DNA of 64,000 nucleotides from Lepidodermella squamata (taxonomy: Eukaryota; Animalia; Gastrotricha). Within the stretch, counting starts at the first letter, position 1. Each line of letters starts with the position of its first letter. Position numbers and translations under genes: made by a program. Shown one piece after another: positions 9,604 to 30,006 of the stretch. The notes beneath the pieces were generated by a model. The model was not told the DNA's origin, did no database searches, and was given only the letters and a program-made list of their open reading frames with translations. Location: NCBI GenBank assembly GCA_047495785.1, contig JBLDXI010000036.1:682001-746000 (forward strand), written 5' to 3'.

Positions 9604-9752
9604 GTCATCTAACGGTCACTCCTATTTTTGAATTTTATGTCACCTCGTACTGTCACTTGCATCGAAATGTAATGAAGTGTCATGGTAATAAAAACGAAAC
9701 ACGAAAATATAACGCTCTATTTATTTACACTCGAAATAATGGTAAACAGGAA

Positions 9753-10028: not shown

Positions 10029-10095
10029 TAATGATTAAAATGCAAGTGAAAATGAAAACGAAAACCGCGTAAATGAATCGGCGAGATCGACCTGC

Positions 10096-10488
10096 TCAGT
10101 AATAATGAGGCATGCGATGCCAAGCAAGGTCTGGCGGTAGATGAAGATCAGACTCGCGAGTTCGGGGAATCACTCGGTAATTTGAAGATTCACCAACTGG
10201 AGGTGGGTGAGGCGGAGACCAAGCGGCGACCTTTCTGGCTAGATCGGTCTTCTTGAAGGCGTCTAGGGGAACACCCGCTCGAGAAATGAGCTCAACAACA
10301 GAATTGTAATGAAGCTTGGCATCCGGAGAATGAGAACTGGGTGATTTCGCCACAACTTCGATCATGGAAGTCAAAGGAATGTTGACCAATTCGTTGCCAT
10401 CGCGAATCAACGTGATAGAGGACCCATCCGATGTCAAAGTATACGTGCCTGTAGACGGCTGAGATTGTAGATAAGATAGAACTGACAC
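10096..10488 (-). CDS. Uncharacterised Polinton ORF, possibly the C-terminal half of the 10493-10915 gene
   Basis: 130-aa frame with no ATG start, lying 4 bp after the upstream stop. Removing one base near 10496 would fuse the two frames (...FSAHRAVSVLSYL...). Confidence 0.5.
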   Translation of the reverse strand: MSVLSYLQSQPSTGTYTLTSDGSSITLIRDGNELVNIPLTSMIEVVAKSPSSHSPDAKLHYNSVVELISRAGVPLDAFKKTDLARKVAAWSPPHPPPVGESSNYRVIPRTRESDLHLPPDLAWHRMPHYY

Positions 10489-10492
10489 AGCT

Positions 10493-10915
10493 CTATGGAG
10501 CTGAGAATCCCAAATTGGAAAACCGAGATGTTACAAATGATTTAACATCGAAAGGTTCCACGACAGGAGACGGATCCGCAGGCGCAGGCGTAGTCGCAGG
10601 GGGAGCGGGAGCTACGGGGGCAGGCTTGGGAACCTCGGCAGTCAAAGCCGGCTTGATAAAACGCACGTAGTTTTGCTTCAGCCTCTCGAGCTCGCCAAAT
10701 ACATGATTGTAGTCTCGAGCAGTCTGGGAATGAACATCCGGCTGATTCAACATCTCAGTCATCTGACCTTCGAGCTCCTCAACCTTGTCGTAAAACGGGC
10801 CATCAAACAGCTTCTGCTTGGTGACAGCACGACGTTGCAGAGAGGAAGCTGCGGTCTTTGTCGAAACAGGTGTATCTTGCATGAGCACGAGCTTGCGGCT
10901 AAACTTTTCAACCAT
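10493..10915 (-). CDS. Uncharacterised Polinton protein (140 aa; helical N-terminus, Pro-rich linker)
   Basis: ATG at 10915 overlaps the end of the upstream core gene. SRKLVLM start resembles ORFs I recall following the core protein in other Polintons. Confidence 0.6.
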   Translation of the reverse strand: MVEKFSRKLVLMQDTPVSTKTAASSLQRRAVTKQKLFDGPFYDKVEELEGQMTEMLNQPDVHSQTARDYNHVFGELERLKQNYVRFIKPALTAEVPKPAPVAPAPPATTPAPADPSPVVEPFDVKSFVTSRFSNLGFSAP

Positions 10916-11288
10916 CACGTTTACGGAGCGACAGAATACCGTCAATAACCGAAGGTAGGATGCTACCAGCAGCTGAAATAAGGAGAGGAATAAGCGGACC
11001 GTTTCCGTGCTGAATAAGAACGGATCGACTACTCTCGGGCGTCTTGACCTTGGAAACGCGGTCAATGGTTGCTTTATATGATCGGAGCTTCTTAACGGTT
11101 TTTGAGTCTGCCGATAAATTTTGACGAATTAAATTCAAACAGATTTCCGTTAGCAAAACAATGACACGTGTCGGGGCCAATGCAAGTAACCGTCGTCGCT
11201 GTCCGGGAGGTGCCTGGGTAAGCAAGCGTAAGAAATCAAGAGTGCGCCGCCTCTTTGAAGTCACCGAATGAGCCACTTTTCGAACCAT
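10908..11288 (-). CDS. Basic Polinton virion core / membrane-active protein with a protease-cleavage-like QxGxG motif
   Basis: Pattern LxxL...R..LL..A...LTEICLNL...KLRSYK...QHGNGPLIPLL followed by an amphipathic tail is typical of small Polinton core proteins. TATATAAA ~40 bp upstream. Confidence 0.75.
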   Translation of the reverse strand: MVRKVAHSVTSKRRRTLDFLRLLTQAPPGQRRRLLALAPTRVIVLLTEICLNLIRQNLSADSKTVKKLRSYKATIDRVSKVKTPESSRSVLIQHGNGPLIPLLISAAGSILPSVIDGILSLRKRDG

Positions 11289-11458
11289 TAGTAGATGGTA
11301 ATAAAAATAAAACGGTCACTAGAAACGGTTTATATAGTAATAAATCAGCTAACGGTTCGAACCAATCCATGTGTATAAATATATGACTTGAATGCAATCG
11401 AGATATCAATTCCTACAATTGTATTTCATTGGTAGTAGTAGCATAACATATTGGGAAC

Positions 11459-12130
11459 ATGGATACCTCCGTGCAGGAAACTTTGATGCAAGACGATGGT
11501 CCTGCCGCCTTCTCGAAACGCGTCGATGGCCCTCTGCTTCCGCCACGTGGTTCTAGTGGTGCTGGCGACTCAAATCGGAGTTATGGATCCCCTCATGAAC
11601 AGCAGCTCACTCGATTTCAACGAGCGCACTACACATTGGCTAAACAGTCGGTAACGAGCTGTAAAGATCCCAACTTTGTCATTCTGCGCAGAAATCGCGA
11701 CGAGAACAGCACCCTTGATCTCGAGTTCTTTGTTGGTCATGCAATCGAAATGAACAAGCTCTTCTTCACACGAAAAGGATTATATTTATCGGTTCGAGAA
11801 CTGCGAATGATTTACGAGAGCATGCAGGTGGAAGGTGGATGGGTTGACAAGATAAAGCAAGAGCTGAAACAGCCGCGCGGAAAGTTTTGTAATGGACCTA
11901 AACATCTCATCGGAGGGATGATTCATGCAAGAGTTTTCCGCCCAACTGGATCACAGCGCGCCTATGTTGATATCCGCCTTTACGTGAACAATCGAAACAA
12001 TCAAGCCGGACAACAAGAGCCACAAGAAAATTCGAGTGACTTTTCGCAGGACGGATTTTGCGCATCAGATGTGGTCTTTCTGGAGCTCCAGCACATGATT
12101 TACTACATGCTGTCGAACTTGAACGAATAG
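11459..12130 (+). CDS. Tandem PC4/Sub1-like ssDNA-binding / coactivator-like protein
   Basis: YVDIRLY and TRKGLYLSVREL resemble the PC4 motifs YVDIREY and KKGISL, one in each half. Divergent orientation; AATAAA at ~12211. Confidence 0.55.
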   Translation: MDTSVQETLMQDDGPAAFSKRVDGPLLPPRGSSGAGDSNRSYGSPHEQQLTRFQRAHYTLAKQSVTSCKDPNFVILRRNRDENSTLDLEFFVGHAIEMNKLFFTRKGLYLSVRELRMIYESMQVEGGWVDKIKQELKQPRGKFCNGPKHLIGGMIHARVFRPTGSQRAYVDIRLYVNNRNNQAGQQEPQENSSDFSQDGFCASDVVFLELQHMIYYMLSNLNE

Positions 12131-12259
12131 AGCAATCAAGCAAGCTACTTCGCGCGCCCAAACTAACATTGATCATATATCCGCGTGTAAATATGCTTCT
12201 CGAGTAATACAATAAAGTGAAAATCTGTGAAAAGTTCAGTCTTTATTAGCATGTCAATT

Positions 12260-13066
12260 TTACATAGTCAATGGCAGGTTCAGATTTGGTACATCATCCA
12301 CTTTAACAAAGACGTTGCCGGTGCGGGTACCGATAAAATTTCGAAATCGAAGTAACGGCGGGCATGACGCTGTGTTATCAATGAGAAGGTAACCAAATGG
12401 AACGCTTGTAGCAAGGTCGAAACTCTCTGAATCATCAAAGAAAAAGTTCAAATTAAAATGATGAGCAAAGCAAGGATCCTACCTTGCAAGAACCGCCAAT
12501 CCTTGGGCATAATCTGACGTGCCAGGTGAGAAAATTGTGTCATATCGCAGGGTGAACGGAACACAATAATGTAGCGAGCGTTCAGAGTCAGGTCGCGAGA
12601 GAACTTACCTCTAAGTAAAGAAGAACAAAATGAGATAATAAGGAACGATTAAAGGGAGAGATAGTGAAAACCTGGGGAAGAGGTTATTTTGGGCCATGAT
12701 AACACTGATCTGGCTGTGATGAGATCCTCGGTAAAACAATTCAGCAACCTGTTTCATATCTTTTGCATCGCTGTAGTTATCGTCAAATATTATTAGTTTG
12801 TGAGCCCCTCCTAAATAGTCAGCTTCATGAAATGATCCAATGTCGTCGCGAAATTCGATGGGAACGCCACGAGCAAGCAACACCTGCTGACTGAGCTCAG
12901 CATGTCCAGGTTGAGCAATTCCTCTGAACCAAACTATTCTATCCAAAGGTTTGTCGAAAGATTCGGGATAAAGCAGAATGTCTTTAATGAGTGTCGATTT
13001 TCCACCCTGACTCGGGGCGGAAAGGATTATAGTACAAGGTGATTGAAAAGCCGTTGTGAAGCTCAT
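12260..13066 (-). CDS. ATPase: A32/FtsK-like genome packaging ATPase, 3 exons (introns 12611-12671, 12427-12482)
   Basis: Walker A APSQGGKST, Walker B IIFDD. Splicing restores QNNLFPR|GKFSRDLTLNARY...LARQ...FLQ|ESFDLATSVPFGYLLID. Confidence 0.93.
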
Positions 13067-13084
13067 AGCTACTTGTTTTATTTT

Positions 13085-13588
13085 TCAAAATCGCTTCTTT
13101 TTATAGTGATCTCTCACAAAGCTAAGAACAAAGGCGTCATTCTGCTGCCTAGAATTTCTGCCGTGATTAGTGATTAAGGATACAATATTAGGTAAGGAAA
13201 CACCACGTGCCGACTGATGAAGGAACACCAAGCAGTATAAGCCACAGTGAATGCTGTCGTAAGCCTGAAGGCTACGGTGGTTATGTGATCGCAACTTTCG
13301 CCCACAGTTCGCCATATTACTTATGAAATGCTCGATCCTAACAGACCAGCTACTGGATTGTTGGCCGTAAGAGTCCATGAAGATGATCGATGAATCGGTA
13401 ACATGAAGAGCAATCCAATGTGACCCTGCTGACGAGCTGGGCGAGGCGTTCACAATCAGGAACAGAGGCTTTTGCGACGAGCCAAGATTTTCATAATAGG
13501 CAAGCGAGTCGCAAGGAATAGTAGCGAAAATGCCTTGGTTAATAACTGGGTCCGAGGCAAGAAAAGCGGTTAATTGATTCGTATTCAT
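13085..13588 (-). CDS. PRO: Adenain/Ulp1-like cysteine protease (virion maturation)
   Basis: GSHWIAL, FMDSYG and LQAYDSIHCGLYC give the His/Asp/Gln/Cys catalytic set. Confidence 0.93.
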   Translation of the reverse strand: MNTNQLTAFLASDPVINQGIFATIPCDSLAYYENLGSSQKPLFLIVNASPSSSAGSHWIALHVTDSSIIFMDSYGQQSSSWSVRIEHFISNMANCGRKLRSHNHRSLQAYDSIHCGLYCLVFLHQSARGVSLPNIVSLITNHGRNSRQQNDAFVLSFVRDHYKKKRF

Positions 13589-14928
13589 CAGAAAAAGTTG
13601 TGAATGACAGTGCGGTTCGACTGGAGCTCCATCACCCGGTGTTTATACTGCATTACGGCAATAAGAGTTGCCGGGTTCGGCAGCTTTTTGCCGAAAACTA
13701 GGTTAATTGCCATCTGACCCGTGGTAATAAGGCGGCCATTCGGGTCGTTGTCCAGTGACAGCTGAAATGCGAGCACTGTGCCACCACTTTTAACAAAATC
13801 GCCCCGACTAATATTGACGCATTTCGAATTCGAATCGGGAAAAATGGTGTCTTGCATTAGTTGATAAGCCCTAGCGCAATCTAAAGTACCAAAGTTCATG
13901 GCCAATGGAGTGCCACCCACAGCTTTCCCATCAATTGTTATCGTTATATTTTGAAGGTCAAAATGTTGAAAGTTGAAAGGGTTGGCTGTAGCCGCTCCCT
14001 GAAGAGCTGAATCCTCGACCATAACTAAATTTGGAATGATTTAAATTAAACATGAATTCCGAGCCGAAAACTTACCTAAAATGAGCTTTTCCGGAATCAC
14101 ACCCATGACTACATTGTTGAGATGGATTGATGTCATGTTAGTGGGCAAATTGAAAGGTTTGGCCAGGGTATGGTTGAAAATGTACTTTGCAGGGGTTTCA
14201 ACTAGTGCCCTCTCCAGAGCCATCGTTACCTCAGGAACAACTTCGACACGTTTCACCAACAAAACAGCTTCCAGTAGTTTGAACTCGTAATCTTTCAGAT
14301 CATCGGACATCAAGAAAAAATCCGGTTTATGCATAGTTAACTTGATTCGAACACTCGTTTGGGGGATCAAATATTTCTCCTGATTGAAGAAGTCCGTTTG
14401 AATTTTCCCGCATAACGAGATAACGGGGTTCTTTTCTATATCATTGACAAGGCTTAGTCGCTGCACGAAGCCGGAATTAGGTGCCTTCAACTGGTCGAAA
14501 GATCCGAATGAGTCTGGATGCCACGCAACGTTACTCAACTTGGCATTTTGCACATCTTCCGAGGCCGAAAGTAAATGCTCAATGTACGCAGAAATCGGAT
14601 GTAACGAGGTGTTTTGCGTTATCAGATACTCATTCACGTAAACGTGGCAATCGGAAAACATTGAATTTAAAAAATTGTTAACAGGCGCACAACAAAAGTT
14701 GTTCTTTGTCATGCCGGCAGCAGTTGAAGTGATTGAGGCTTTGATGGAAAGGTAAGTATGACTGAGGTCGGTGAATGCTTCCGATGCGGGGATCGTAAAG
14801 GTGATTTGTTGCGCGCCCGAAATGGATGCCATGGGATGGCACTCCGTGGTGTGAGTACCAGTGACCTCATTGGTGACAGGCGGGGAAGCGAAAATAGCCA
14901 ACTCTGCCCTAATTGCGTGATCAGACAT
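13588..14928 (-). CDS. MCP: Major capsid protein (double jelly-roll), 429 aa, 2 exons (intron 14025-14075)
   Basis: ELAIF, FTDLSHTYL, PVNNFLNSMFS, DFFNQEKYLIP. Splicing gives IPEKLILVMVEDSALQG...NPFNFQHF. TATATATAAA ~40 bp upstream. Confidence 0.93.
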
Positions 14929-14983
14929 TGTAAATTCTCGGAATAATGTTTTATTAATAATTCATCGCTTTATATATATCAAA

Positions 14984-15397
14984 TCAGAACAGAATGCGCG
15001 TAGATTTAGCTGGCCTTTTCCCACGCTTAAATTTTCGTTTGCCGGAACCGTACTGACGAGCTAGGTGACTGATTGCATCCTTTCCTACTGTTTTTAGGCC
15101 TTCCATACCTCGATTCTTGAAAACTTCCGCCATGTTATATTCAGATCCAGCTTGCTGCCGCTCAGAAATATCCGAAGCAATGTTTGTTGCAGTTGAAGCA
15201 GCTGAAGTGAAAAGTTTAGGCAGAAAAGGTATTAAAGTGTGACGAATAAAGCTGCGGATATATGTTCCCAGTCCATTTCCAACTTGAGGCATCAATACGA
15301 TGGATGGTCCACTAAACGGTTGTATACCGCTTCCGCCTCGTCCAGTTTGGCTAATGAACCAGTTGTAGTAGGCATCGGAAGAAATGGGTGCTCGCAT
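14984..15397 (-). CDS. Polinton core protein with repeated QxGxG cleavage-like motifs and a basic C-terminus
   Basis: QTGRGG, QVGNGLG followed by an amphipathic helix, QYGSGKRKFKRGKR. Lies between mCP and MCP. Confidence 0.78.
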   Translation of the reverse strand: MRAPISSDAYYNWFISQTGRGGSGIQPFSGPSIVLMPQVGNGLGTYIRSFIRHTLIPFLPKLFTSAASTATNIASDISERQQAGSEYNMAEVFKNRGMEGLKTVGKDAISHLARQYGSGKRKFKRGKRPAKSTRILF

Positions 15398-15400
15398 TGC

Positions 15401-16523
15401 TTAGCGACGAATGGGCCGAATATGGATGGTGACAAGAGATTTGCCTTCCTTATATACAACTTTCTGTCCCGAGTCTAGGCACATCAAAATTGAAATAGTA
15501 TCCACAAATTGAGTGCGAACAGGGTGATAAAACGGCATTGAGCCAGCAAAACTGGTCATGCTGTATTTTGTGGCGGAAGCTGAACCCGAAGCTGGAAATA
15601 CGCGGAGTAATGGTACAAATTTGTCACCACATATTGTGTGTTCAATCAAATCGCTATAGCAATAAACCAAAGGGCTGTGAAAATGGATCTGTGGCTTGAA
15701 CTCGGAAAAAATTGGAATCTCATCGTACGTCGGGCGGTAATTTACTGCAGCTACCAACTCTGATTCACCACTTTCATTTTTCCGATGCATGTTTAGTCTC
15801 AACTTGCCATCGTCACAGTCCTGGTAAGTCGGAATCTTACCGTGGGCCATTGGCATCTTTGAGCCTTCCTTCCCCGGCAAAATAAATCGCAACATGTGAC
15901 TAAACAGCGATAAAAACTCGCGCTCATGGCGTATAGAGTCTTCCAACTCAAGATCCTCGTCATGTGGCGGAATATTCAGCAAAAGAGTCCCACGCTCAAA
16001 CCCTAGTATTTGAGCAATAAACTCGGGTAAATAGAGACCACAGCCAGGTTTTAAGTTGAATCTAATACGACTCCTTGATTCCTCATGACTCAAAGTCATG
16101 CCGCTCCAATCGGGGAATTCCGCTGTCATATGATTCAGAAAGTCGTCCATGGTTTCGTAAATTCTGCCGCCAACAGTACATTGCGAAAATTCTTCCGGTG
16201 TGTCAAACGGTGAATCATTCAAATTCGCACGCTCGAACCATGACGTTTTGAACAAATAGAAATGAGATTTCTTAATGGAAATCACTTGAGAAGGTGTGCA
16301 GACTTCCAAAAGCGCCGCTTCATGGCTCCCTATGCATCCCAAATCTATGAAAATCGAAACATGGTAAGAACAAAATAATAATATCTGAATCCGCCATACC
16401 GATAATTTCCGGGAGCTTGACTTTAAATTCTGCCGCATTATTGTTGCTAAAAAGATCCATTGACGCGTGAGAAGGAAGTGTCAAAATGAGATCTTTGCCG
16501 TAATAATTATTTGCTGGAAGCAT
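15401..16523 (-). CDS. mCP: Minor capsid protein (penton, single jelly-roll) with a large central insertion, 2 exons (intron 16345-16399)
   Basis: LTLPSHASMDLFSNN...FKVKLPEII|DL...EAALLEV at the N-terminus; YCYSDLIE...GDKFVPLLR...VTIHIRP at the C-terminus. Confidence 0.88.
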
Positions 16524-16728
16524 TCGTAGTTGTCGATTGATAGATTAGCGGATAAAAAAACCACGTCAATATCAGCAAAATTAAGGTAAGGGTAACAGTC
16601 GTAATTTGTTTCGTTCGTTTAGACAAGGAACTGGCAAAGCTTGGGGATGGTAGCAGCGGCGCAGGCAAAATTAGTGGTCTCTGAATGCGAGACAGGTCAG
16701 GAGTCGAAAGTGAGTGCATTTTCCCCAA
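16507..16728 (-). CDS. Small putative single-pass membrane protein
   Basis: 73-aa frame between INT and mCP with a strongly hydrophobic stretch (VTLTLILLILTWFFYPLIY); true start uncertain. Confidence 0.4.
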   Translation of the reverse strand: MGKMHSLSTPDLSRIQRPLILPAPLLPSPSFASSLSKRTKQITTVTLTLILLILTWFFYPLIYQSTTTNASSK

Positions 16729-16746
16729 CCTGATTTACTATCCTTT

Positions 16747-17796
16747 TTATATTCTTTGAAGCTCGAAATTATAGAACACACGATTCAACTGTTTTCCTTG
16801 CCCCTCCGGTTTCACTCGATAGGCAACAGTCGAATTTCCATTTTGAGGAATAACTTTTGATACGAGATAGATTTTCTCAGAAAAAGTAGGGTTCTTCACA
16901 CGATTCTTGAAAGTTGAACGTTTCTCCATAATACGAACGCGATCACCAACCTTGAATTGAACCCGAACTGGTCGAATATTCGAGAATATAGTTTCAAAGG
17001 CCAGGAAATTATCAAAATGCTCATCATAAACAGTCATTAGTCCGGGCTCTGAAAGTTCCATGTTCAGTTTGGGAGAATGGGCCCAAAGATCATTCGGACT
17101 CATTTGAGTAGTTGAATTTGGACAAGAGTTGATTGAGTGAAGAAAATCACCCAATTTATCGATAAATTTCTTGGTATTGTTCGCCATCAGGTAACGAACA
17201 ATCCGCATGCGAATATTGCGGATAAAAGTTTCGATTGAGCCGACCTTTTTCGTTGACTCGGTTAGGTAAAAATGCGAATGCAATTCGTTTTCAATGTAGT
17301 TTCGAACTCGCTTGTCCTTGAATTCTGACCCTTTGTCAGTAATGAACTGATGTGGAACTAAGCCAACGTCTACCATTATCTCCTTCAATGCAGATAGAAC
17401 CACCGCCCCAGTTTTATTACGAAGAACTTTTAGCCAACATTTGCGTGTGTATAAATCTTTTACACATAAGATGTATTTTTGACGCCTATTGTTAAATTGG
17501 TACTCCTTGGTAATTTCCAGCAAATCAGCAGCAAAGCAGGAACCCTTGGAGTAAACAGCCACTCGGCGGAAAAGCTTTCTATTTCGCGTTGAAGCTTGTT
17601 TAAACCGAGAATAAGCCGGTTGTTTAGAGAGCCATTCTCTGACTGACTTGTACGTGATCAAAGGATTATTTGGATATTTTGAAACTGCAGCATCATATAA
17701 AATTTTTATAGAACGGAAACTGCTAGGAAGCTCAGGCGAGTAGTACAATGGGTGTAGAATATCATCAAGCTCAACAATTTCGACATCGGAAGTCAT
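16747..17796 (-). CDS. INT: Retroviral-like (RVE) DDE integrase, 349 aa
   Basis: YYSP...WL..Q.AY N-terminus, FAADL, TDKGSEF, IETFIRNIR, FKVGDRVRI, FYNFELQ. Consistent with the 6-bp TSD. Confidence 0.95.
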   Translation of the reverse strand: MTSDVEIVELDDILHPLYYSPELPSSFRSIKILYDAAVSKYPNNPLITYKSVREWLSKQPAYSRFKQASTRNRKLFRRVAVYSKGSCFAADLLEITKEYQFNNRRQKYILCVKDLYTRKCWLKVLRNKTGAVVLSALKEIMVDVGLVPHQFITDKGSEFKDKRVRNYIENELHSHFYLTESTKKVGSIETFIRNIRMRIVRYLMANNTKKFIDKLGDFLHSINSCPNSTTQMSPNDLWAHSPKLNMELSEPGLMTVYDEHFDNFLAFETIFSNIRPVRVQFKVGDRVRIMEKRSTFKNRVKNPTFSEKIYLVSKVIPQNGNSTVAYRVKPEGQGKQLNRVFYNFELQRI

Positions 17797-17818
17797 TATC
17801 ACAAGTAAAAATGAATTT

Positions 17819-20800
17819 TTATTTTTTATAACCGAATGGGATGGTTTCAAAGGTTGCAAAGTTCGAGATTACTCGTTTTTGAAATTTGAAACTAAGTGTT
17901 TTTATAGTATTTTCAATGGCAACTTTTGCATACGGCTTGCAGTGGAATCGGCGCCAGACTTGTTGTTCAAGCTCTAGTCGTGCCTTCTCACCACCGCAGT
18001 TGACAGATTTCAGGATGTTCATAAAGCATTGGAAATTCGTACGCTTTTTGAGCGCGGAAGTCAATTGAAATCCTTTCATCCTGATGCATGTGTTGCCCTG
18101 GGATGTTTCGTACATGTAGGTTTTTGGGGCGAGTCCGATAAACCTGAAATATTATTCCACGAAAAGCTGTTCAATTATAAAAACAAAAAAATTGACTCAC
18201 TTGGTAATATGTTCATTTGCATTTAATTCCGGTTTCCATTCCCCAAGAAAATTGCCAACATGCAACGGCTGAGGTCCTCCAGGTCGCTCGACGTAAATGC
18301 AGGAGTCTGCGAAGATATGGTGAGATTTAGCGTCAGCAGATCCTACCCTGAGCTTCCCCTGAGCCTCAGCTACCCTAACCTGAGCTTCCCCTGAGCCTCA
18401 GCTACCCTAACCTGAGCTTCCCCTGAGCCTCAGCTACCTTAACCTGAGCATCCCCTGAGCCTCAGCTACCTTAACCTGAGCATCCCCTGAGCCTCAGCTA
18501 CCTTAACCTGAGCATCCCCTGAGCCTCAGCTACCTTAATCTGAGCATCCCCTGAGCCTCAGCTACCTTAACCTGAGCTTCAGCGACCCGTCTTCGAGCTG
18601 TTCTTACCTGTGTCGGTGTACAGAACACAGTCCTGTAGGCGATGCAGCTGGCGGTACAGGTAAACTCTCGCCGCTGAGGTGACGTAAGCGGCCAAGACCA
18701 CGTTGGAAACGGGTAAAGTTGGCTGCAATTCCAGCTGACTGGTGTGAGTTACGCGTAGTCGCTCCTCCGACCGGCACCCTTCATCATCGCAGGGTGGAAT
18801 CACAGCGATATCGTGGATTGTGATACCAGGTCTGCGAATCAAGCTCAGTAGCTCGGCCGGAGTATCGATATACGTAACGTCGAGACCATCTGGCCGTAGT
18901 CCGAGCTTACCATAAGCTAAATTCAATGTTGAATGGACCCGATGTTTATTTTTCTATCGAAAAAATGTACCTGTATTGAGCAGCAACTTCCCCAGTTGCC
19001 TTTTCGCATTATTGACCGTACCCAACTGACCTGGATCCAACTCTATTCCATAGAGTTCCTTGCATTTTTCGACGTAGCCTTCGACATCGTTTCCTGAGTA
19101 TCCGCTCGCTTGCAATTTTATCTGAAAATTAAAAATTAGAAACTCATTTTCCAATCCGATTTGACAGTTTACCTTCAGGCTGTCATGAATGAACGATCTG
19201 AAGAGCTCCGTTGACTTCTTGTCGTAATGATAGGATTCATAAAACCGAATCACTTCGCACTGGTTCAGATCCAATGCTAGGCGAAGTTCTGTTGTGGTAA
19301 CGAAGATTCGGTAGCATCGCTCGTCATCGGAGTGAGTACACTCGGCCTGATGATTCATCTCCATACAGGATCTACAGTTGCCTACGATATAATTGTTTAA
19401 TTTTCGTGAGATTTGAGTTAAAAATTTATTACTTACCGAACTTCAGGTACCCTTGAGAGGTGCGATATGCCAATAATGGGATGAAAACATCTCTTCGCGG
19501 CAAGATCAACACGTGCGTTAACCCGAAAGTCGGTGTAATTGTTGAGTAGAAATGAGCGCGAAGTTCCAAGTGGTTATTTCGCAGTTTCAAAACGTCCTCA
19601 TTGACCGGTCCATAAGGTAAGAAAACGTCATAGTAACCATCCTCTTGAGATCCGATCTTGCCACTCAAAATTGCTGGGTAGAGGCTTTTTAAGGTCATAT
19701 TTACACACGAGTTTTTTTTTTTTAAATTATCATTAATTTAACCTATTTACGTCGAGATACTTGATCTTCTGGTCGGGTGACGAGGAAACGTCGTAAAACA
19801 GGCAAAAATTTTCGGTGCGGCCACCCATGAAACTATCACGTGGTAACGCCCTAGAATTCTCAGTTCTCAGAATAAGAGACATTTTAAAAATTACACCTTA
19901 ATTCTTACCTGTCAACAATGTCCAGGGTGCGTTCAATCTCCCCGGTCAGTACCGCATCGTCGCTCATGGCTTTCTTGGCTTCGCACGCCCAAATGCTGGT
20001 CAGATTGTATCCTGCAGCGCGAATTGCACCATCGCGTTCTTCTGTATCCTTGAATAAGAACCCAAATGATACTTTCCGGACAGGATGAATTTTATTGGCC
20101 GCTTCAGGAAAGCACCTGGTAACAATTCAGAAATGTTTTGATTTTAGCTTGTAAGTGTTTTTTTTTTGACATACTTCATGCAGCCATGGCAAAAACAGCC
20201 GTGGTACATGTACACCTCGAGAATCTTGTTGTTTGCGTCGTAAACAACCCCGTCAGGGAGGAATCTTCGGAACTTGGAATTCTCAGTTATACACAACTCC
20301 CCATTTGAGTTGGCTGCATGTTGAATGCGTTTCCCGGTTTTTCGAGCCACGAACTCGAAGTAAACAATAGATTCCCGCGAGTAATTCGCCCTAAAAATTC
20401 CCATGACTTACATTTTATTTGTTTTTCAACTTCAGGATTAATTCATACCCCTTCGCGTAGCCAGTGTTTGGAACAAGGTGAATAGGTGTCGCAGGATCCA
20501 GGTAGAGGAAGCGCCAAATGAAATTCGAAAGAGATGCCAGGGTTCGAACCTCTGAAAGTTATACGAATGAAAATAAAGATCCAGGCTGATTTTATAATCA
20601 TACCCCATATAGCGTCGATGCCTTCCGGACACTTGTCGTCTCGGGTTGTGAATTCTCGCAACATCGATCGGAACTTGATTACAGCTCTATGCAGCAAATT
20701 TACATCGGACTGGCAGTAATTAATCAGCTGATTACGAAGGTGGAACTTTTGATGCTGATTTTCAGCTAAGAATTGTTGCAACTCAGCGAGTTTTGAATCC

Positions 20801-23094
20801 GAAAGCCGGTTTGTGTCATAGTCATCCAAGGTTGGGAAGTCTCGCTCGTTATCGGAAAGGAAATTCGCTGATGTCAGCAATTTATAGGGAAAAAATTCCT
20901 TTCCAGTTGCATTCGCATCCTCATCCAGACCGAAGCAGTGGAAAAGCGAAGCCAACGATGACATGGAGAGGAGGTAAAAGTCTCGAAATACGATTGCTTT
21001 TTTCTCAACAGATAGCTCGATAATTGTGTTATTTTTGTAAATATGTTCGAACTGATAATCGTGCTGTTGTAACCATTTCAGGACCATAAAATTATCGAAT
21101 CTATAGCGAGATTAAATTAAATTTCCGAAATCTAACTCTTCGATTTTCCCACCTTGAACCATTATGAGAGAGAAGTAAAATTCCAGAATACTTTTCTCGC
21201 AGCAAAAATTTCATAAACTGGTTTACACAGGTGGAATCCGCACCAGTTGAAACGAAGATCTGCTGGCGCGGGTCGTCACCAGTACACGATTTGGGACACG
21301 TTGCGGTGACAAGCATGTGTTGACACGAGTCACAAAACATGTTCAACACTATCACGACTGGCACTAGTTCTCCGGTTTCCAACTGAATTGTTTCGGTATC
21401 CCAAGCTCCGGCAATTCGCAGAGGATCTTTGCGAAGCCTGCCTGGTTGAATGACACAGCTGTGTTCCTCGTCAGCCTCCTCCGAGCTTATTGGCCCGTTA
21501 CAAGTTCGACACGTCCGAGATTGACCTATAGTCACATTGTAGCAAAAAATTAAGATGGATTTTTTCCCATTTCATCAACTCACAGTTATGTTTTCCCTTT
21601 TGCGCTATCCCAATTTTCCTACCGCACTTGCCGCACATGAAGTAGGACTGGCAAATGGTCGCAGCTCCGGGTGTTTCAGGTGTCTGGTGATTCATGAAAC
21701 ACTGGGCCCCGTGGAAAAATAAGCCACAACTCCCGCATAACATTGTTCGTTCGTTCGAGTCACGACATGTTGCGCCGGCTCGCTGGCACCTGTTGCACTT
21801 AAAACGGCACGTGTGCTGCAGGTTGTTTTTCTTGTGCAACATGAAACATCGCGGGCACATCATCTTCTCCCCAGAAATAGTGCTAATGCCTGTTTCATTT
21901 TTTAGGAATGAATTTCAAATTATGCATTTTATATATTTCTCCTACTTGTTAATCCAACATAATGTCCCACGCTTCGATCGTACCGCCCACTTTCGCGATG
22001 TGATGCCAAGGCTCTGTTGTTGATATAACCGATCAAAATTTTTCGCTCATCGGCAATTGTGAGTCCTGCTTCCGGATGTACAGCCATCGTTTGCTTATCC
22101 ATGAAGTTGTAAATAACACCTGTTTATTTCCAAAACTTTTTATCGAATTTTAGTTTGTTTAAATTAATTATTGCCTCGATAGGGTAAGCCAATCGTATCA
22201 ATAACCCGCTTGAATTCGTCAAGACCATATGCCATTTGATTAGGTTGGATTCCCGCGGCATTCATGAGTTTCAGTGCTAGTTCGCCCTGATATGCTTTGA
22301 TTGCAGCCCTTTCCAGATTCGCTAGTTCGGATGTTGACATGCGGTCTTTCGAAAATCCTGGCCGTAGTCTGTCATAGTCGCCGTGAGGTTGGCAGCCCGG
22401 CCGGGGTTGTTTGTGATCACGATATAACAGAGAATGTGCGATTGACCTGAAGAGACAGTGATTATCAGCATCATTTTCCACTGGAAGGACTTCATTGTGA
22501 CCCATTATGAAGTCAACCATTGTTTCCTCAAGTCGGCGTCGTTTACCACCCTTGCCACCGTAGCCTTGCTCGCCATCTTCCAGTTCACCCACTGCAATTC
22601 TATAGATGTTGTAGCTCCAGCCTAATTTTAATAATGAAAATCATTCCAAGTTCCAGTAATATTAAATCGAACCGTTGTTCATGGCTATTGAAAGTCTAGA
22701 CTGCATCACCGAGTTTATCTCGTCCATGATCATAGCACCAGTCAATTCCTGTACTTGAAGGTATTTCGTATTTACTGGAAAATTCAAGCTGGGGTGGAAA
22801 AGTTCAACCCGAACGTAATCCCTAATTTTCAGTTAAAATGTTTCATTTTTACTCTTAAATAACGAGTTCCTACCTTGGATGGAAAGAGTTTCGCAATTTC
22901 TCTACCAAACCTTCGAATTGCGAATTAATTTTCGATAAAAGTTCCAGTATTTCCAAGCCGCTTTCATCATCCTCATCGGCGTCGTCTTCAAATCCAAACC
23001 CTATCTGATCTGAAGGATCGATCGCTTGCGAGGAATATTTGAAAACGTCCATCTTGAATCGCGGAGAATAGCAGAAAAACCCGTGAAAATCCAT
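17819..23094 (-). CDS. pPolB: Protein-primed family B DNA polymerase (~1382 aa) with N-terminal OTU-like domain, Zn fingers and Vsr-like insertion; 17 exons
   Basis: Introns: 22822-22873, 22622-22672, 22120-22174 (GC-AG), 21890-21945, 21526-21583, 21101-21152, 20552-20603, 20391-20448, 20116-20174, 19851-19908, 19685-19742, 19382-19436, 19122-19172, 18917-18970, 18307-18607, 18144-18200. The spliced frame (4149 nt) gives DTET, HNGSRFD, YCQSDV, FMGGRTE, DVNSLYP, KLLLNTAYGKLG, YTDTDS, APKTY and TIPFGY. Start codon is tentative. Confidence 0.93.
18346..18580. repeat. 32-bp minisatellite (~7 copies) inside a pPolB intron
   Basis: Unit ccctgagcctcagctacc(c/t)taacctgagc(t/a)tc starts at 18357, 18389, 18421, 18453, 18485, 18517 and 18549. 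Confidence 0.9.
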
Positions 23095-24461
23095 ATTTTC
23101 ACTAATGAAGATGGAAAATAGTTGTCCGATTTTCACGAATAATGATAATAAATTGGGTTCGGTTAAAAACTCATAGGGATATAATGTTCATTTGAAAACT
23201 GTCAAGTTTCATTCCTCGAGAACGTTAGCTTATTTAAATGACTTTTCAACGGTTTACTCGTTTCCGAATGATGTCTCCAAATTCATATTTTTATTGCTTA
23301 TTTAGCAACTGTTTCTGAATTTTTATTGTTGATCAGCACGCGTTGTAATAAAAAAGCGACCCGATTTCAAGTGTTTCTCAATTTTTATTACAATATCCGC
23401 ACATTAAATCACGTACAATCGGGTTGCTTGAAAACTTTTATTACTTAACGGCGCACCATATTGACACATGTCATCGGGCAGCGTCTAAAAAAAAAAATAC
23501 AATGAATTTTGATTGATTTATGTCTTTAAGAACTTACACTTTTCCGGATCCTGTTCCATATATGATCTGAATGAATGAAATGGAAATTTAGCTATTTTGA
23601 ATTAAATGTAGTCATGAAAAATCATACCTGAGGATCCCATCGATTTCCAGTGTGTGTAAAACGGTCTATTTCTAATTTCTATGAATATCTTCGTTCGAGC
23701 AAACTGCGACGGAATGTGATGATTCCGTCAACATTACAGGCATTGGCGAAACAGTACAACGATGAACTTGAATTGTGGATAACTGCTCCAGATTAGAATT
23801 GATTCCCCAGAGTTTCATTGCGAAATCTTAATTTTTATTACAGCAGTTCTTCTTTCCATAGCATCGGAACAGCCTAAGATCATAGACGCTAAATTTAAGA
23901 ATAAATGTACGCAGTTTCAATGGCATGCTACTACTACATAGTAGCATGGACGTAGGCTATTAACATTCAGTCGAGTGTGTGTCGCGTCCAATTTTTATTT
24001 CTCATATAGTATCGCATATAATATAGTTTCAAGCTGCGTCAGTGGTGTAGTTAAATCTTTAATGCCAGTCACTATTATCCACCCCGACGAAAATACATTC
24101 ACGCATGTTGAACCATTGGTTACATTTTTACACCGCAGTGCCGGAAATCTAGTATTATCATATATCACTCGCGCACAGAGTTTGGCAACACGAGCTATTA
24201 AGGCCTCAGTTATGTTTATTCCAGTTGGCATCTTTCCCGCAAGAGTACTGTTCAGACTATCGGTCTGTCACTTTTTTCCGGTCTTTGCAAGACCAGACCT
24301 TTTTGCCCTTGAATAAGGCCAAGACCCAGACCGAAATTACAACCAGGTCTTTAAACCAAGACCAAAGACCAAAGACCGGAATAATAATTACTCGTTTCTT
24401 TTATTTCCTTGATTAAATTCTCTTCTCCGCGTTCAAGTAAACGTTTTCAGAAATTTTTAAA

Positions 24462-27131
24462 TTAACATTCAGAAGTGAGATGTTTATTGCCACGGCACAC
24501 CATTGAACGGCAGATGGTGTCAGGTTTAAGCCTCAAACGGCGAGGCGATACGGAATGGCTCGATAATGAAAAGATTCTTTCGGCCCATGCGCTACTTGCG
24601 CAAATTGCGAAGATTCGCCGCACTAGCAACGATAAATTTGGAAAGCGGCGATGATGAGATTTCCAAAAAGCTAGGCCACAAGGTAGATCGACGTCGTGTA
24701 CGCTGAGCAGGTCGAGATAGGAAGCAACCTCGCTTCTTAGGGTCGAATTTGGCACTTGCTTTTTATCATGAGCCGTTACTTGTTTTGACATGAAATTAGT
24801 GAGAAACTTCGGCGTAGTCGATGAAACAATAGCAGACGCCGCAGCTTGCGGTGACGAGGAAGCAGCAGAATTGCCATTTAACTGAAACGAATCGAAAAAT
24901 GCACTTCATCCAAATTAATATTAATAAAAGTTATCAACCTCGCTCAGATATTCGTTGAGGCAAAAGCATTCCTTGACCATAATGCTGGTGATAATGCTTG
25001 TAAACTTTTCGACGTCAACATAATTTGGCAGAAATTTCAAGCCATAAGCCGGGTCCAGAACTGACGCTAAGATAAAATATGGATCTGAATAGGTTCGGCT
25101 AAGGTCCGAGTTCGTTTCCTCGCCCTCGACTTCTCCAGCTGATATCTCTGCCATGCGATCAGGATTTATTAGATTCTTCATTATTCCACCAAATCGTCGC
25201 GAACAAGACTCACGTAACGTCGAAGCCAGCTAAAAAAATTTAATTATTTTTTTTTAATTTAATTCCGATTTTTATTTTTATTATTATTTATTTATCTTTG
25301 AATTTTTGAGAACATTTTTAAATTAAATTACAAGTCTTGTCATTAAACATTTTTTAAACGCTTTGAATTTTCGAAGTTTCCAAAACAATTTTCTAAATTT
25401 TCTAAAACCTTTGCTTACTTGCGAAATATCGCTGAATTTCGATTTGAACTCGTAGAAGTGATCACGAAGTGCCAACACAGACGGTACAACGCAGCTCATG
25501 GTCGCGTCATTTCTTTGCACTAGCAGCGTGACTTCGTCGACAGGTGACAGTAAACAAACAAAGTCCTGCAATTTAGCGCGCTCTTGTTGACTCAGCTCGA
25601 GTTCCTTCCGCTTAATTTTGAGGAGACCCGACTTCAGCTTATTCGTGTCCACTTTCAACAGCACTTTCACGAGACGCAGCTGGCCATTCCATCGAGTCGC
25701 ATTCTTTTGCGGAACAACGGGTTGTCCATCCAAAACTTCCGCCAACGGCCCGCTTGTATGCATTAGAGATGTTATCGAATCACACTTACCCAACAGAGCT
25801 TTCAATTCAGCTGACATGGCTTTTAATCCATCGCAAACAGTCAATTGAAAGGTATGACCAAAACAGCTAATCCGATTAAGGGAGGCGGTTTCAACGAAGG
25901 CATCTAGCTCGTTCTCGGACACCTCGATATCATTATTAGCCTCATCGTCGTCTTCGTCATCTGCTTCATACGATCGCGAGTCATCTCCCAGCTCGGACTC
26001 AGTGGCCAATTTACCATTCAGCATGACGCGGAAAGCTTTCAGCACATTAGACCCATTATCAGTTGTTGCCCTTGAATTAAAATTAAATTTAAAATTTAAT
26101 AATTTAATTCGACATTTATTTCAAAATTTATTTCAAAATTTATTTCAAAATTTAATTCAAAATTTATTTCAAAATTTAATTCAAAATTTATTTCAAAATT
26201 TAATTCAAAATTTATTTCAAAATTTAATTCAAAATTTATTTCAAAATTCAATTCAAAATTTATTTCAAAATTTAATTCAAAATTTAATTTAAAATTTAGC
26301 ACGTGTTCACCTTGCGATATCTTCGTTGGTTATTCCCATTTCCGCCAGAATTTCCTTGTAGGTATCAGCAATGTTCGTCCCAGTGTGGGATCCCACGACA
26401 TGTTTGAAAGAAATGAGACAGTGTTCGACGTCGAAATCGGAATTAATCATGGTCACATAAAATGCCATGAATGCCCGGAGTCTCCGATCGGTCCATAAAT
26501 CAATCTGACTGGCAGAAAACCCGCGATTTCTTTTCAGCATCGCCTTAATTTTGACCTGCAATTCGTCAACAACAGATTCGATTTCGGTTTTTAGGCCTTC
26601 CGAACCAAGATCACGGTAACGTTGGTCTGCGTCTTTCATCAATTTTCGAAATCGAGGATTTTCGACGATTTGATTAGCAATGCCTGTTTCCACAACTAGA
26701 AGTGCGATGTCACGGTTTAGCTGCCGTTGCCTCGGGTCGTTTGGCTTGTATTCTGCCAGGGGTCGAGCAAATTTTCGAATGCTTGATTGCTCGATTTTGG
26801 TGCATAGTCTCGGTTTTCGGTGTGGCAACGTTTTGAAAATTTTGTTGTGAACTCGTTTCAGGTGACGCCGGAAAGAAGAAGACTCAGAATCAGTGATTGC
26901 GACAACTGTGGGTACGCAGTGCTTGCATTCTGCTGTCCACTTATCATCGGACAGTTTCTTCCAATTAGAAAAGTGTTCAAATACCGAGAAGGTCGGGTGG
27001 TCTGAAGAGATAGGAGTTAGAGTTTTATCGAGGGATTCAGCTTCGCTACCAGAATCAGATTCTTCAGATCCGGAGCAGCTTTCAGCACTGGTTAATGCAG
27101 CCAATCGCTTTCTCTTAGCAGGTTTAGGCAT
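24462..27131 (-). CDS. hAT transposase (BED finger, DDE, dimerisation domain), 727 aa, 4 exons (introns 26071-26310, 25230-25418, 24882-24938)
   Basis: WTAECKHC...RRHLKRVH, IDLWTD, TTDNGSN, CFGHTFQL, TRWN, SSAWAERIFS. The frame is open after splicing. Confidence 0.92.
26085..26300. repeat. AT-rich 12-bp minisatellite in hAT intron 1
   Basis: Tandem aaattta(a/t)ttca units. Confidence 0.9.
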
Positions 27132-28025
27132 TGGCTCTCTTGAATGAAAACTGACAATTTAAAAATGACGAAAAATAATGAAATAAATAACTCATACAAA
27201 TTTTTCTGATGAAATTCAGATGTTTATTGACTGCGACCATGCTATTTTCCAACCGAGCAATCTGCGACCAGGCAGATTTAAATAACCGGATGTCTTCATA
27301 GAGTCGTAGCCTTTTGAGAATGAACACGTCCGACTAAATGCATGACCTATTTTTTGTTTTTAATCCTCGTCAATCAAAGTCAAAAACCAGAAAATTAAGA
27401 CCAAAAGACCCAGACAGGCCGAAATTTCCTCTCTGGTCTTGGGCAGACCGAAGACCACCAAATTGACCCAGTCTTGGTCTGGTCTTAGTCTTACTCCGAA
27501 GACCAGGCCGATAGTCTGGTACTGTTTACCAGGCGAATCTTAGATACCTTTATGGCAGTGTTGTCTTGTCGCTGTAGTTTCCTTGCCAGTTTTCGCCCAT
27601 AAATTTTTGCCAGTTCAGGATTCTTCGTGAAAAGCACGACTTTCCCGTTTTTAAATAGCAAAGCGTTGAAGTGCGGCTCTTTAATGACGAGAGCATTTGG
27701 AAACTTTTGTTTAAGCTCAACCATTTTGAAGAGGTGAATAATTTTCCGCAGATCAAAATGTACCCCCAGCGAGAGTGTGGAAACAACATTTTGCACGGTA
27801 ACATCAATTTCAAGCATTTAATATTCCAAGAAAAATGAGAAAATGAGGTGACATGACGAATTTACTTGCTTTTTATTACATTGTATAAATTATAAATGGT
27901 GCCGAGATGCAACGCTCAGTTTTCAAAAAACATTTTTGGCGAAATCTTCCAAATTTATATCAACTGTAAAATACCTTGTCATATTCTTACGCATCATTTT
28001 ACTTGGCAACTATACTTATCCTGAA

Positions 28026-28295
28026 ATGGCTAATCCTCAAATAGCTGAAATTTTCTTTCAACTATTTGTAAACCTGTAAGTATTTAATGTCAAAAAATTC
28101 AACATACCTTATATTTTTCTTTCTTTCTTCAGCTACGACGAGGCAGGTCAAATGTATGATCACTTGCAGAACTCAGTAGCCAGCTACAACACTATCATCC
28201 AGATATTATGGGACATTCACGGATTACTCGTACCTCATCCTCCTCCACAGCCCCCTAGTCCTCCTGTGGAGGAGGAGGAAAATGCCAACTGGTGA
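28026..28295 (+). CDS. Small spliced Polinton ORF (70 aa; intron 28076-28132) with a Pro-rich/acidic tail
   Basis: Strong GTAAGT donor and polypyrimidine-CAG acceptor. Product MANPQIAEIFFQLFVNLYDEAG...PHPPPQPPSPPVEEEENANW. Not in the ORF track. Confidence 0.6.
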
Positions 28296-28464
28296 CCTGT
28301 ATAAAAAAAAAAAATAATCAACATTATTACAATATTATTAAACATTATATTAACCTTTGTATTTCGAAATCGCTATCGAAATCTAATCGAAGTAAATGTA
28401 AAGATTGCATTCCATGGCTTTTCTCAATCCAAGGATACAAATAGAAAAATGCAGTCGAGTTTTA

Positions 28465-28689
28465 CTAACTTTTGTATGCTGAAATGTCTTTCATTACCAG
28501 AGCGGAATCTACACATATGACGAAAAGGTTGACGCCGCATTTATTATCATAGCAAGTTGCCGTTATGTCAAGCTGACATTTTAAGAATATTCGCAGCTGC
28601 CCGTTGGCGAGACATAAAAGCTTGGCTTGGTCTCGTAAAACGTGACAATTCCAGAGGGTACTTTCACTCTTGCAAGATGACTCATGCAT
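28465..28689 (-). CDS. Small Cys-rich hypothetical Polinton ORF (74 aa)
   Basis: ATG-started ORF just inside the right TIR, 7 Cys, no recognised family. Confidence 0.3.
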   Translation of the reverse strand: MHESSCKSESTLWNCHVLRDQAKLLCLANGQLRIFLKCQLDITATCYDNKCGVNLFVICVDSALVMKDISAYKS

Positions 28690-28829
28690 TGGTTACTTTT
28701 GCGTCACATGCCCATTACATTTTAGAAGTTTGAATTTATGTATGCCGGAAGAGTCAAGGTCATATTTTGGTATATTGGCGCTGAAATAATGGTTGGCGGG
28801 AAAGTTTCAATTTTCCTTTTCAAAAACTA

Positions 28830-30006
28830 GCGAGTGACCGTTGGAATTATGGAAAATTCAAATTTTGACTAGGGTTTTGGCTGGAATATTGTGTGTGTGT
28901 CAAGGTCATAATTTGGCGGGAAAATAGTTTTTGGCGGGAAAATCAATCGATATCGATTAGGGTTAGTGTTTAGGATTAGGGTTAAGCCCTAGGAATAGTG
29001 TTAAGGATTAGGGTTAAGCCCTAGGAATAGTGTTAAGGATTAGGGTTAGGGTTACGCCTATTTTGGCGGGAAATTAAATCAAAATCAATCAATATCGGTT
29101 GATCGATATCGGTTATCGGCTAGGGTTAGGGATTATCGATTAGGTTTAGGATTAGGGTTAAGCACTAGGAATAGTGTTAAGGATTAGGGTTAAGCCCTAG
29201 GAATAGTGTTAAGGATTAGGGTTAGGGTTACGCCTATTTTGGCGGGAAATTAAATCAAAATCAATCAATATCGGTTGATCGATATCGGTTATCGGCTAGG
29301 GTTAGGGATTATCGATTAGGGTTAGGGTTAAGGATTAGGGTTAAGCCCTAGGAATAGTGTTAAGGATTAGGGTTAAGCCCTAGGAATAGTGTTAAGGATT
29401 AGGGTTAGGGTTACGCCTATTTTGGCGGGAAATTAATTCAAAATCAATCAATATCGGTTGATCGATATCGGTTATCGGCTAGGGTTAGGGATTATCGATT
29501 AGGGTTAGGGTTAAGCATTAGGGTTAAGCCCTAGGAATAGTGTTAAGGATTAGGGTTAAGCCCTAGGAATAGTGTTAAGGATTAGGGTTAGGGTTACGCC
29601 TATTTTGGCGGGAAATTAAATCAAAATCAATCAATATCGGTTGATCGATATCGGTTATCGGCTAGGGTTAGGGATTATCGATTAGGGTTAGGGTTAAGGA
29701 TTAGGGTTAAGCCCTAGGAATAGTGTTAAGGATTAGGGTTAAGCCCTAGGAATAGTGTTAAGGATTAGGGTTAGGGTTACGCCTATTTTGGCGGGAAATT
29801 AATTCAAAATCAATCAATATCGGTTGATCGATATCGGTTATCGGCTAGGGTTAGGGATTATCGATTAGGGTTAGGGTTAGGGTTAGGGTTAAGCCCTAGG
29901 CTTAGGGTTAGGGTTAGGGTTAGGGTTAGGGTTAGCTCAAGGTCAAGGTCGCGCGGGAAAAATTCAAATCGGAAAAACCGTTAACTTTTCCTCCCCCCCT
30001 ACTACT
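28830..30006 (-). repeat. Right terminal inverted repeat: five ~183-bp higher-order units of TTAGGG variants, then a (TTAGGG)n run and a ~70-bp terminal cap
   Basis: acgcctattttggcgggaaa recurs at 29054, 29230, 29413, 29596 and 29779. Near-pure TTAGGG at ~29865-29935. Confidence 0.93.

Follow-up and report, generated by a model that had tools for sequence, protein, structure and literature searches.

The 64,000-nucleotide window, the whole stretch of DNA that was analyzed, holds a Maverick/Polinton element of 21,987 bp (8020..30006, no strand assigned) flanked by host genes for class C GPCRs and LamG, a setting that suggests an animal host. Features by which such elements are recognized are present at its ends, namely terminal inverted repeats (TIRs) with AG...CT termini and a flanking 6-bp target-site duplication (TSD). 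The left TIR (8020..9603) is identical to the right end over its outermost 70 bp, after which the arm is broken by an inserted stretch of ~880 bp with a reverse-transcriptase-like open reading frame (ORF); it also contains TAACCC-type repeats. The right TIR (28830..30006) contains a 183-bp tandem array. A TBP-like gene on the minus strand (23998..27817) is interrupted by a hAT transposon, itself intact (24253-27518), that has an 8-bp TSD and a 728-codon transposase with three introns, so that this copy carries two secondary insertions, the hAT and the reverse-transcriptase fragment. A literature search for TBP within Mavericks found nothing relevant. Sequencing run X2, presumed to be RNA, contains a polyadenylated transcript of the element (23365..24197, minus strand) from which introns of 61 nt (23627-23567) and 53 nt (23537-23485) have been removed; it is probably the 3′ end of the message of the TBP-like gene.

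All six core genes of the element have open reading frames, and all lie on the minus strand. The retroviral-like (rve) integrase (16747..17796, 349 aa) has no intron, matches PF00665 at the cut-off, and has homologs in 12 related loci. The likely minor capsid (penton) gene (15401..16523) has one phase-1 intron of 55 nt (16399-16345). Its candidate product has atlas neighbors at 0.96-0.97 that include the Sputnik V18/19 cluster (the family is on 26% of members, with recognition below threshold) and weak matches in two related loci. The major capsid protein (MCP) gene (13588..14928) also has a single phase-1 intron, of 51 nt (14075-14025). A model of MCP exon 1 (pLDDT 65) matches the capsids of an iridovirus, mavirus, PBCV-1, and Sputnik with E values of ~1e-6 to 1e-4, which predicts the double jelly-roll major capsid protein expected of a Maverick. 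An adenain-like cysteine protease gene without an intron (13085..13588; PF00770) adjoins it, followed by the gene for a packaging ATPase with a Walker A motif (12260..13066) that has introns at 12671-12611 (61 nt, phase 2) and 12482-12427 (56 nt, phase 1). Homologs of the ATPase adjoin pPolB in 15 loci, and the sequence across the MCP and ATPase intron junctions is contiguous in intronless relatives. Altogether, the core genes have 20 introns spread over four genes, with four shared among the MCP, ATPase, and penton genes and 16 in pPolB.

The pPolB gene and its introns

The pPolB gene (23094-17819, minus strand) reads as 17 exons that join into 4149 nt encoding 1382 aa with no internal stop, and recomputation reproduced the original prediction in its exon and intron counts, its open frame, and its intron sizes (15 of 51-59 nt and one of 301 nt). 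The encoded protein has an N-terminal region that is putatively TP from its position, a vOTU domain with Cys and His, a Cys-rich region, an exonuclease, a Vsr-like insert, and a palm. The Exo I-III, Pol A-C, and KxY motifs are intact, with motif residues that agree with those of 14 homologs, and one exon matches PF03175 (E = 2e-13). Cys179 and His325 of the predicted vOTU domain, named from motif and position, align with a Cys and a His in 13 of the 14 homologs.

Seven of the introns have a length confirmed by a single-chain homolog profile, since the excess DNA at the junction equals the intron exactly. These are intron 5 (21583-21526; 58 nt, phase 1), intron 6 (21152-21101; 52 nt, phase 2), intron 9 (20174-20116; 59 nt, phase 2), intron 12 (19436-19382; 55 nt, phase 1), intron 14 (18970-18917; 54 nt, phase 1), intron 15 (18607-18307; 301 nt, phase 1), and intron 16 (18200-18144; 57 nt, phase 2). 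The others, likewise on the minus strand, are intron 1 (22873-22822; 52 nt, phase 2), intron 2 (22672-22622; 51 nt, phase 1), intron 3 (22174-22120; 55 nt, phase 1), intron 4 (21945-21890; 56 nt, phase 1), intron 7 (20603-20552; 52 nt, phase 1), intron 8 (20448-20391; 58 nt, phase 2), intron 10 (19908-19851; 58 nt, phase 2), intron 11 (19742-19685; 58 nt, phase 2), and intron 13 (19172-19122; 51 nt). As predicted, catalytic motifs are interrupted: ExoII by intron 6, motif A by intron 11, motif B by intron 14, and motif C by intron 15. The exceptional length of intron 15 comes from a minisatellite, 7.2 copies of a 32-bp unit, that has swollen it. Phase 0 is nearly absent (1/16), intron 13 being the only case; this intron is in frame and free of stops, and its sole support is its splice sites and homology. 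Retention of any of the other 15 would truncate the protein, and the longest stop-free frame in the gene is 222 aa.

The gaps have the character of U2-type introns in their ends (15 GT-AG and one GC-AG, in intron 3), their AT content (GC of 0.26 in the short introns versus 0.47 in exons), and their host-like size, which the original prediction had also noted from the 56- and 63-nt introns of the LamG gene. Most junctions are gap-free in an alignment against nine homologs. An alternative in-frame GT/GC-AG pair lies nearby at 9 of the 16 sites, so that the precise ends of some introns were chosen by splice consensus and by homology. Comparison with DNA run X1 provides further evidence. All six frame-breaking indels in the gene between X1 and this copy fall in introns, and the lone exonic indel is 6 nt, a signal of P = 1e-4 that becomes 0.03 after allowing for homopolymer runs. 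Short introns make up 16.6% of the bases and hold 7 of the 16 substitutions (P = 0.01). In the pPolB exons, differences from X1 are 8 nonsynonymous to 1 synonymous, versus 6 to 8 in the other element genes (14 coding changes among the 40 differences listed of 192), and on account of this excess the pPolB of this copy may be drifting. Run X1 also contains a diverged second family with joints at a depth of 61, in which a loose end at intron 10 can be read as intron or exon. No spliced pPolB junction was found in run X2, which is only guessed to be RNA; its few low-depth contigs on the gene are fold-back chimeras, one of them into intron 1, and speak neither for nor against splicing. Run X3 gave only short chance matches.

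Relatives and the origin of the introns

Related pPolB genes are for the most part uninterrupted. A single ORF is found in 50 of 84 related loci, and only five loci, from three lineages, bear introns, in a count that left out 74 of 78 viral_contigs loci as partial or distant matches. These five metagenome contigs (L006/L007/L009, L020, and L061) have short, AT-rich, GT-AG introns like those described here, yet only one or two each. The original prediction had considered that related Polintons might routinely be this rich in introns; the maximum found elsewhere is two. Three further loci of the eight flagged as intron-like (L030, L056, and L058) were rejected, as they look like frameshifts or linker insertions. 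The intron of L020 lies in the same codon as intron 6, 1 nt upstream, and that of L006/L007/L009 lies one codon downstream of intron 14. A single clade of L006, L020, and this gene is rejected (AU p = 3e-33, a test that did not include L061). Placement of L006 and L020 outside the clade of this gene, with intron sites within 1-3 nt of its own, points to independent gains at ExoII and motif B in separate lineages. A deletion at motif B in L030, to which L006 is most closely related, removes that site from the comparison.

The best relative found reaches 32% identity. Word-index protein searches with LamG and pPolB exon 7 gave no match, the same search with MCP exon 1 gave one protein that ends ambiguously close to the intron site, scans of loci with single proteins yielded no relative, and a PDB sequence search with pPolB exon 7 returned nothing significant. 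With relatives this distant, the gains carry no date, and an old burst that has since decayed is conceivable. The massive intron gain that was originally proposed is supported by the mostly intron-free relatives, the separate ancestry of the tested intron-bearing lineages, and the host-like intron size.

Our best reading, held with moderate confidence, is that the 16 gaps are introns very likely removed by the major spliceosome of the host and probably gained singly, as introns of host type, over the long residence of this DNA-replicating lineage in the genome of its host. The host would transcribe pPolB and splice introns of 51-59 nt like its own to yield the vOTU-Exo-palm replicase. Precisely spliced insertions would pass to later copies and seldom be purged, because Mavericks copy DNA to DNA without a reverse-transcription step of their own. 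Gains would be mainly tolerated rather than adaptive, and the survivors would have been filtered by splicing constraints, with no exon below 103 nt and even spacing. The enrichment of introns in conserved sequence could likewise reflect survivorship, as only exact gain or exact loss would be viable within a conserved motif. Newly gained introns of Daphnia are described, in the available text of PMC4202315, as AT-rich, without an excess of phase 0, and often of parallel origin. Sites of the types G|, AG|, and G|G in the coding sequence of pPolB are 33-48% phase 0, and their supply does not account for its phase skew.

Introns are 4.4 times as dense in pPolB as in the other core genes, which pure tolerance would not predict. 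In a rival account, adaptive host mimicry, which takes in the evasion of silencing suggested in the original prediction, introns would have been selected so that the longest transcript resembles a host gene and thereby escapes the silencing of intronless DNA, or is better exported or expressed. As the longest gene, pPolB has 16 of the 20 coding introns (P = 0.003 versus its length share), and its exons are even in size (103-497 nt; CV 0.48 vs 0.95, P = 0.0006), both of which suit such selection. Silencing of long intronless transcripts by HUSH is reported in human cells, but in the portions of that report available a 0.13-kb intron gave no protection and protection rose with length (PMC8770142). 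Moreover, the integrase and protease have no introns, the ORFs of the flanking host GPCRs run stop-free for 682-786 codons, and most sampled relatives persist intron-free. We regard adaptive mimicry as unlikely.

A burst of introners is decidedly unlikely. One nonautonomous transposon family would have seeded the introns together, after which they diverged and shrank to host size. Such an origin would fit introns that are alike in size, skewed in phase, and evenly spaced, and dinoflagellate Polinton-like elements are described as containing introners in the accessible text of PMC12166617. However, neither mark of introners, mutual similarity or terminal inverted repeats or target duplication, is seen in pPolB. 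In the all-versus-all comparison that the original prediction had proposed, the introns resemble one another only as much as shuffled sequences do, the best pair score of 24 being reached by 40% of 200 shuffles. Terminal repeats longer than 7 nt and TIRs are absent from the introns, junction repeats are only 1-3 nt, exon lengths show no periodicity (P = 0.91), and other lineages reached nearby sites independently.

It is more doubtful still, and very improbable, that the introns act as a splicing gate that limits the replicase to cells or stages able to splice all 16 efficiently. The third intron of the P element, which restricts its transposase, is the model for such a gate. The weak GC donor, several A-rich acceptors, and truncation upon retention of 15 of the 16 introns would be in keeping with it, but such truncation is expected of nearly any set of introns. 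That this is not a functional Maverick gene at all is extremely improbable and already largely refuted. Under this reading, pPolB would be a copy in decay that took up insertions at random, or else a host gene derived by domestication whose introns came as they do in other host genes. The two secondary insertions and the mostly nonsynonymous differences of pPolB from X1 would agree with it, but the six core genes are open, the element keeps undamaged TIR ends and its TSD, each of the gaps has GT/GC-AG ends and is rich in AT, and several copies of the element are present in X1 together with a deletion derivative.

Significance and comparison with known elements

A pPolB gene divided in this way bears on how Mavericks are found. 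At least one eukaryote-wide survey, in the part of its methods available, admitted only pPolB ORFs of 900 aa or more. Elements of this kind escape ORF-length filters or are scored as decayed, and for this reason the range of the family may be under-counted. Ancestrally intron-free, with many intronless outgroups and now with 16 unrelated introns, pPolB serves as a clean natural experiment in how introns arise de novo. Three matters become testable in it, namely the gain of introns in parallel at hotspots in motifs, the unusual scarcity of phase 0, and whether a viral replicase gene takes on host style through long host residence. A wider proposal, tentative and on balance doubtful, is that a hidden class of host-spliced invertebrate Mavericks has been missed by such filters, its replicase selectively packed with evenly spaced introns, nearly exclusively of phases 1 and 2, at catalytic-motif hotspots hit in parallel by unrelated lineages, so that the element would be taken for a host gene and yet retain the genes for its capsid.

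Among known systems, the vertebrate and nematode Mavericks (eupolintoviruses; PMC8097293; 10.1101/2022.07.12.499685; 10.1101/2023.08.22.554363) share with this element the TIRs, 6-bp TSD, pPolB, rve integrase, ATPase, protease, MCP, and likely penton, and the predicted vOTU of pPolB, with its Cys and its His, is shared with the Mavericks of 10.1101/2024.03.18.585575, as far as the available portions of these reports describe them. The core genes of the former are reported there as intronless, with the nematode introns in cargo genes, whereas here pPolB has 16 introns and the MCP, ATPase, and penton genes have four more. Intronless core genes are a described trait rather than a formal criterion of Mavericks; with 20 introns in four core genes, this element very likely departs from it. 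Host-type spliceosomal introns in genes of endogenous dsDNA viruses are also described for Punuivirus and the giant endogenous viral elements of green algae, and the excerpted text gives RNA-backed introns in 61 of 506 genes of the 617-kb nucleocytovirus Punuivirus, at 2.5 on average (10.64898/2026.10.09.758095); the 16 introns of pPolB, whose splicing is predicted from sequence, all belong instead to one gene of 4.1 kb within an element of 22 kb. Dinoflagellate Polinton-like elements share spliceosomal-type introns in full-length eupolintoviral elements, and according to the parts of PMC12166617 available these were mostly gained after integration and belong to repetitive introner families, with ~25% in coding regions. 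In contrast, the introns described here show no relation to one another, and most of them fall in the replicase gene of what is probably an animal element.

Exon-intron structure of the polymerase gene

The sixteen-intron structure of the protein-primed DNA polymerase gene, pPolB, is real and extreme in degree. On the minus strand at 23094-17819, 17 exons totaling 4149 nt with no internal stops are separated by 16 AT-rich gaps, 15 with GT-AG ends and one with GC-AG. Fifteen introns measure 51-59 nt and the remaining one, 301 nt long, contains 7.2 copies of a 32-bp unit; GC content is 0.47 in exons and 0.26 in short introns. Rechecking returned every number and motif position of the original prediction, along with the 56- and 63-nt introns it gave for the host LamG gene. 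The open frame alone is weak evidence for this model because an alternative splice pair would likewise leave the frame open at 9 of the 16 sites. Homology, as judged from sequence comparison, is the stronger support. Single-chain proteins 1200-1750 aa long align with almost the entire exon chain (~25% identity), and against the nine homologs displayed most junctions are gap-free. This holds for intron 13, which is in frame and has no stop; the alignment says less about introns 7 and 8, whose surroundings are variable. At seven junctions, the surplus DNA found by a homolog-only profile is as long as the intron. The residues examined in the exonuclease and polymerase match 14 homologs and the vOTU Cys and His match 13 of them; the Vsr-like insert has one conserved Glu substituted.

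Introns in related polymerase loci

The relatives comprised 84 loci, namely the 80 best of 400 from metagenomes and the first four of 78 viral ones. Of these, 50 are single ORFs and 26 are interrupted but show no intron-like gaps; the other eight were flagged as intron-like, three of these calls proving false on inspection. Introns thus occur in 5/84 loci with a maximum of two each, as counted in a sample biased toward intronless genes (the query and peptide pattern derived from single-chain proteins, and the window pPolB itself lacks the pattern) and by a detector that regained only 10 of the 16 introns of the window pPolB. In three metagenome loci of one family (L006, L007, L009), motif B is cut by an intron of 89-90 nt, a single codon away from intron 14. 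L020, also metagenomic, has two introns: one of 74 nt in ExoII, offset by 1 nt from intron 6, and one of 63 nt upstream of motif B. Those at L006:7582-7671, L007:2728-2816, L020:1230-1303 and L020:2898-2960 are clear short GT-AG introns, all phase 1 or 2; L061 has a probable intron. None of the relatives found exceeds 32% identity to the window pPolB, and a 20-row tree rejected the window pPolB, L020 and L006 as one group (p-AU 3e-33, with long branches in play), so the near-shared positions most likely represent parallel gains.

The enclosing Maverick, its copies and its transcripts

The Maverick (8020-30006; 21,987 bp) has AG...CT ends and a 6-bp TSD. Its rve integrase and adenain protease have no introns, the ATPase has two, and the major capsid protein (MCP) and likely penton have one each, all with open frames; intronless relatives read straight through the MCP and ATPase junctions, and the predicted capsid structure resembles jelly-roll capsids. 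A two-lobed TBP-like gene (27817-23998, minus strand), both halves matching PF00352, is interrupted by an intact hAT with an 8-bp TSD. The TBP-like gene found no match among 158 related loci; a figure legend in PMC8502044 gives a TBP label for adinto-like viruses of non-animal hosts. The hAT introns (26310-26071 and 25418-25230) are expanded by AT-rich tandem repeats, as is pPolB intron 15. Several short GT-AG intron-like stretches, seen by eye 5' of the TBP-like ORF (28300-27820, minus), are possibly a spliced leader region. A 227-aa ORF (11447-12130, plus), on the strand opposite to the other element genes, matches neither Pfam nor the related loci. An ~880-bp stretch (8090-8970) with an RT-like/DUF6451 ORF is inserted 70 bp into the left TIR. 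In both TIRs, TAACCC telomere-like runs (8985-9430 and 28950-29935) are embedded in tandem units of 183-214 bp, unequal in copy number between the arms. The element is inserted among long stop-free ORFs of a class C GPCR-like tandem array (30115-57316 and 3835-4602), several apparently frameshifted or interrupted; these GPCR genes point to an animal host.

Several element copies are present in the DNA run X1. All six frame-breaking indels within pPolB are intronic and the sole exonic indel is 6 nt; for the five in short introns, P = 1e-4 by length share and 0.03 once homopolymer runs are allowed for. Short introns hold 7 of the 16 substitutions outside the long intron (P = 0.01). The nine exonic substitutions comprise eight non-synonymous and one synonymous, a ratio that counts against family-level constraint on the window copy; the corresponding counts in other element genes are 6 and 8 (14 coding rows, from 40 of 192 variant rows). 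One X1 deletion derivative (18445-19225; depth 82) begins within the intron 15 minisatellite, and another contig has unrelated sequence, possibly an insertion, next to 20590 in intron 7. In X2, tentatively taken to be RNA, a polyadenylated element transcript (23365-23875, minus) has 53- and 61-nt introns excised, probably in a 3' UTR; the part examined has no ORF >48 aa. X1 coverage there is ~2x that of the element core. No pPolB splice junction was found in X2, and splicing of pPolB itself is therefore inferred.

Origin of the introns and comparison with known systems

We modestly favor a reading in which the host would splice the pPolB message as it does its own short introns. The introns would have accumulated one by one, since DNA-based replication gives the element no easy way to lose them, and those in conserved motifs would be survivors. 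Junctions fall in conserved windows (0.54 versus 0.40, P = 0.0005). Evasion of silencing, the driver originally proposed, seems unlikely. It fits the concentration of introns in the longest gene (3.9/kb versus 0.87/kb in five other core genes, P = 0.003) and their even spacing (exon-size CV 0.48 versus 0.95 at random, P = 0.0006; no exon <103 nt, P = 0.0002), and analogues appear in parts of PMC8770142 and 10.64898/2026.10.09.758095. However, a 0.13-kb intron gave no protection against HUSH in the former, and both the integrase and protease and the long flanking host ORFs are intronless. Seeding by an old introner burst is more doubtful: the introner-like similarity raised by the original prediction did not emerge, the pPolB introns being unlike one another and without terminal repeats, and hence not a recognizable introner family. 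Introners are described in dinoflagellate Polinton-like elements (PMC12166617, in part), whose three supplements contain no match for pPolB or polymerase. A splicing gate is improbable, and decay or domestication of pPolB highly so.

The pPolB introns number 1/8/7 in phases 0/1/2, and phase 0 accounts for 1/20 core-gene introns, a pattern noticed post hoc (P = 0.003 versus equal thirds; P = 0.008 versus the 29.9% of new Daphnia introns in the accessible part of PMC4202315). A review, likewise in part, describes a phase-0 excess in nearly all genomes (PMC3488318). The baseline available in the window is phase 0 in 2/3 hAT and 0/2 LamG introns.

No published report of an intron-rich Maverick polymerase was found in a search excluding the 2006-2007 founding papers, Repbase and punuivirus gene tables. 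The accessible portions of PMC12220804, 10.64898/2026.07.28.741278, PMC5718144, PMC8502044, PMC6431247 and 10.1101/2024.03.18.585575 describe no spliceosomal intron in pPolB, and one survey, as partly available, demanded pPolB ORFs of 900 aa (10.1101/2023.08.22.554363). The sections available of PMC8097293 and 10.1101/2022.07.12.499685 describe the core genes of vertebrate and nematode Mavericks as lacking introns, whereas this Maverick carries introns in pPolB, the ATPase, the MCP and the likely penton.
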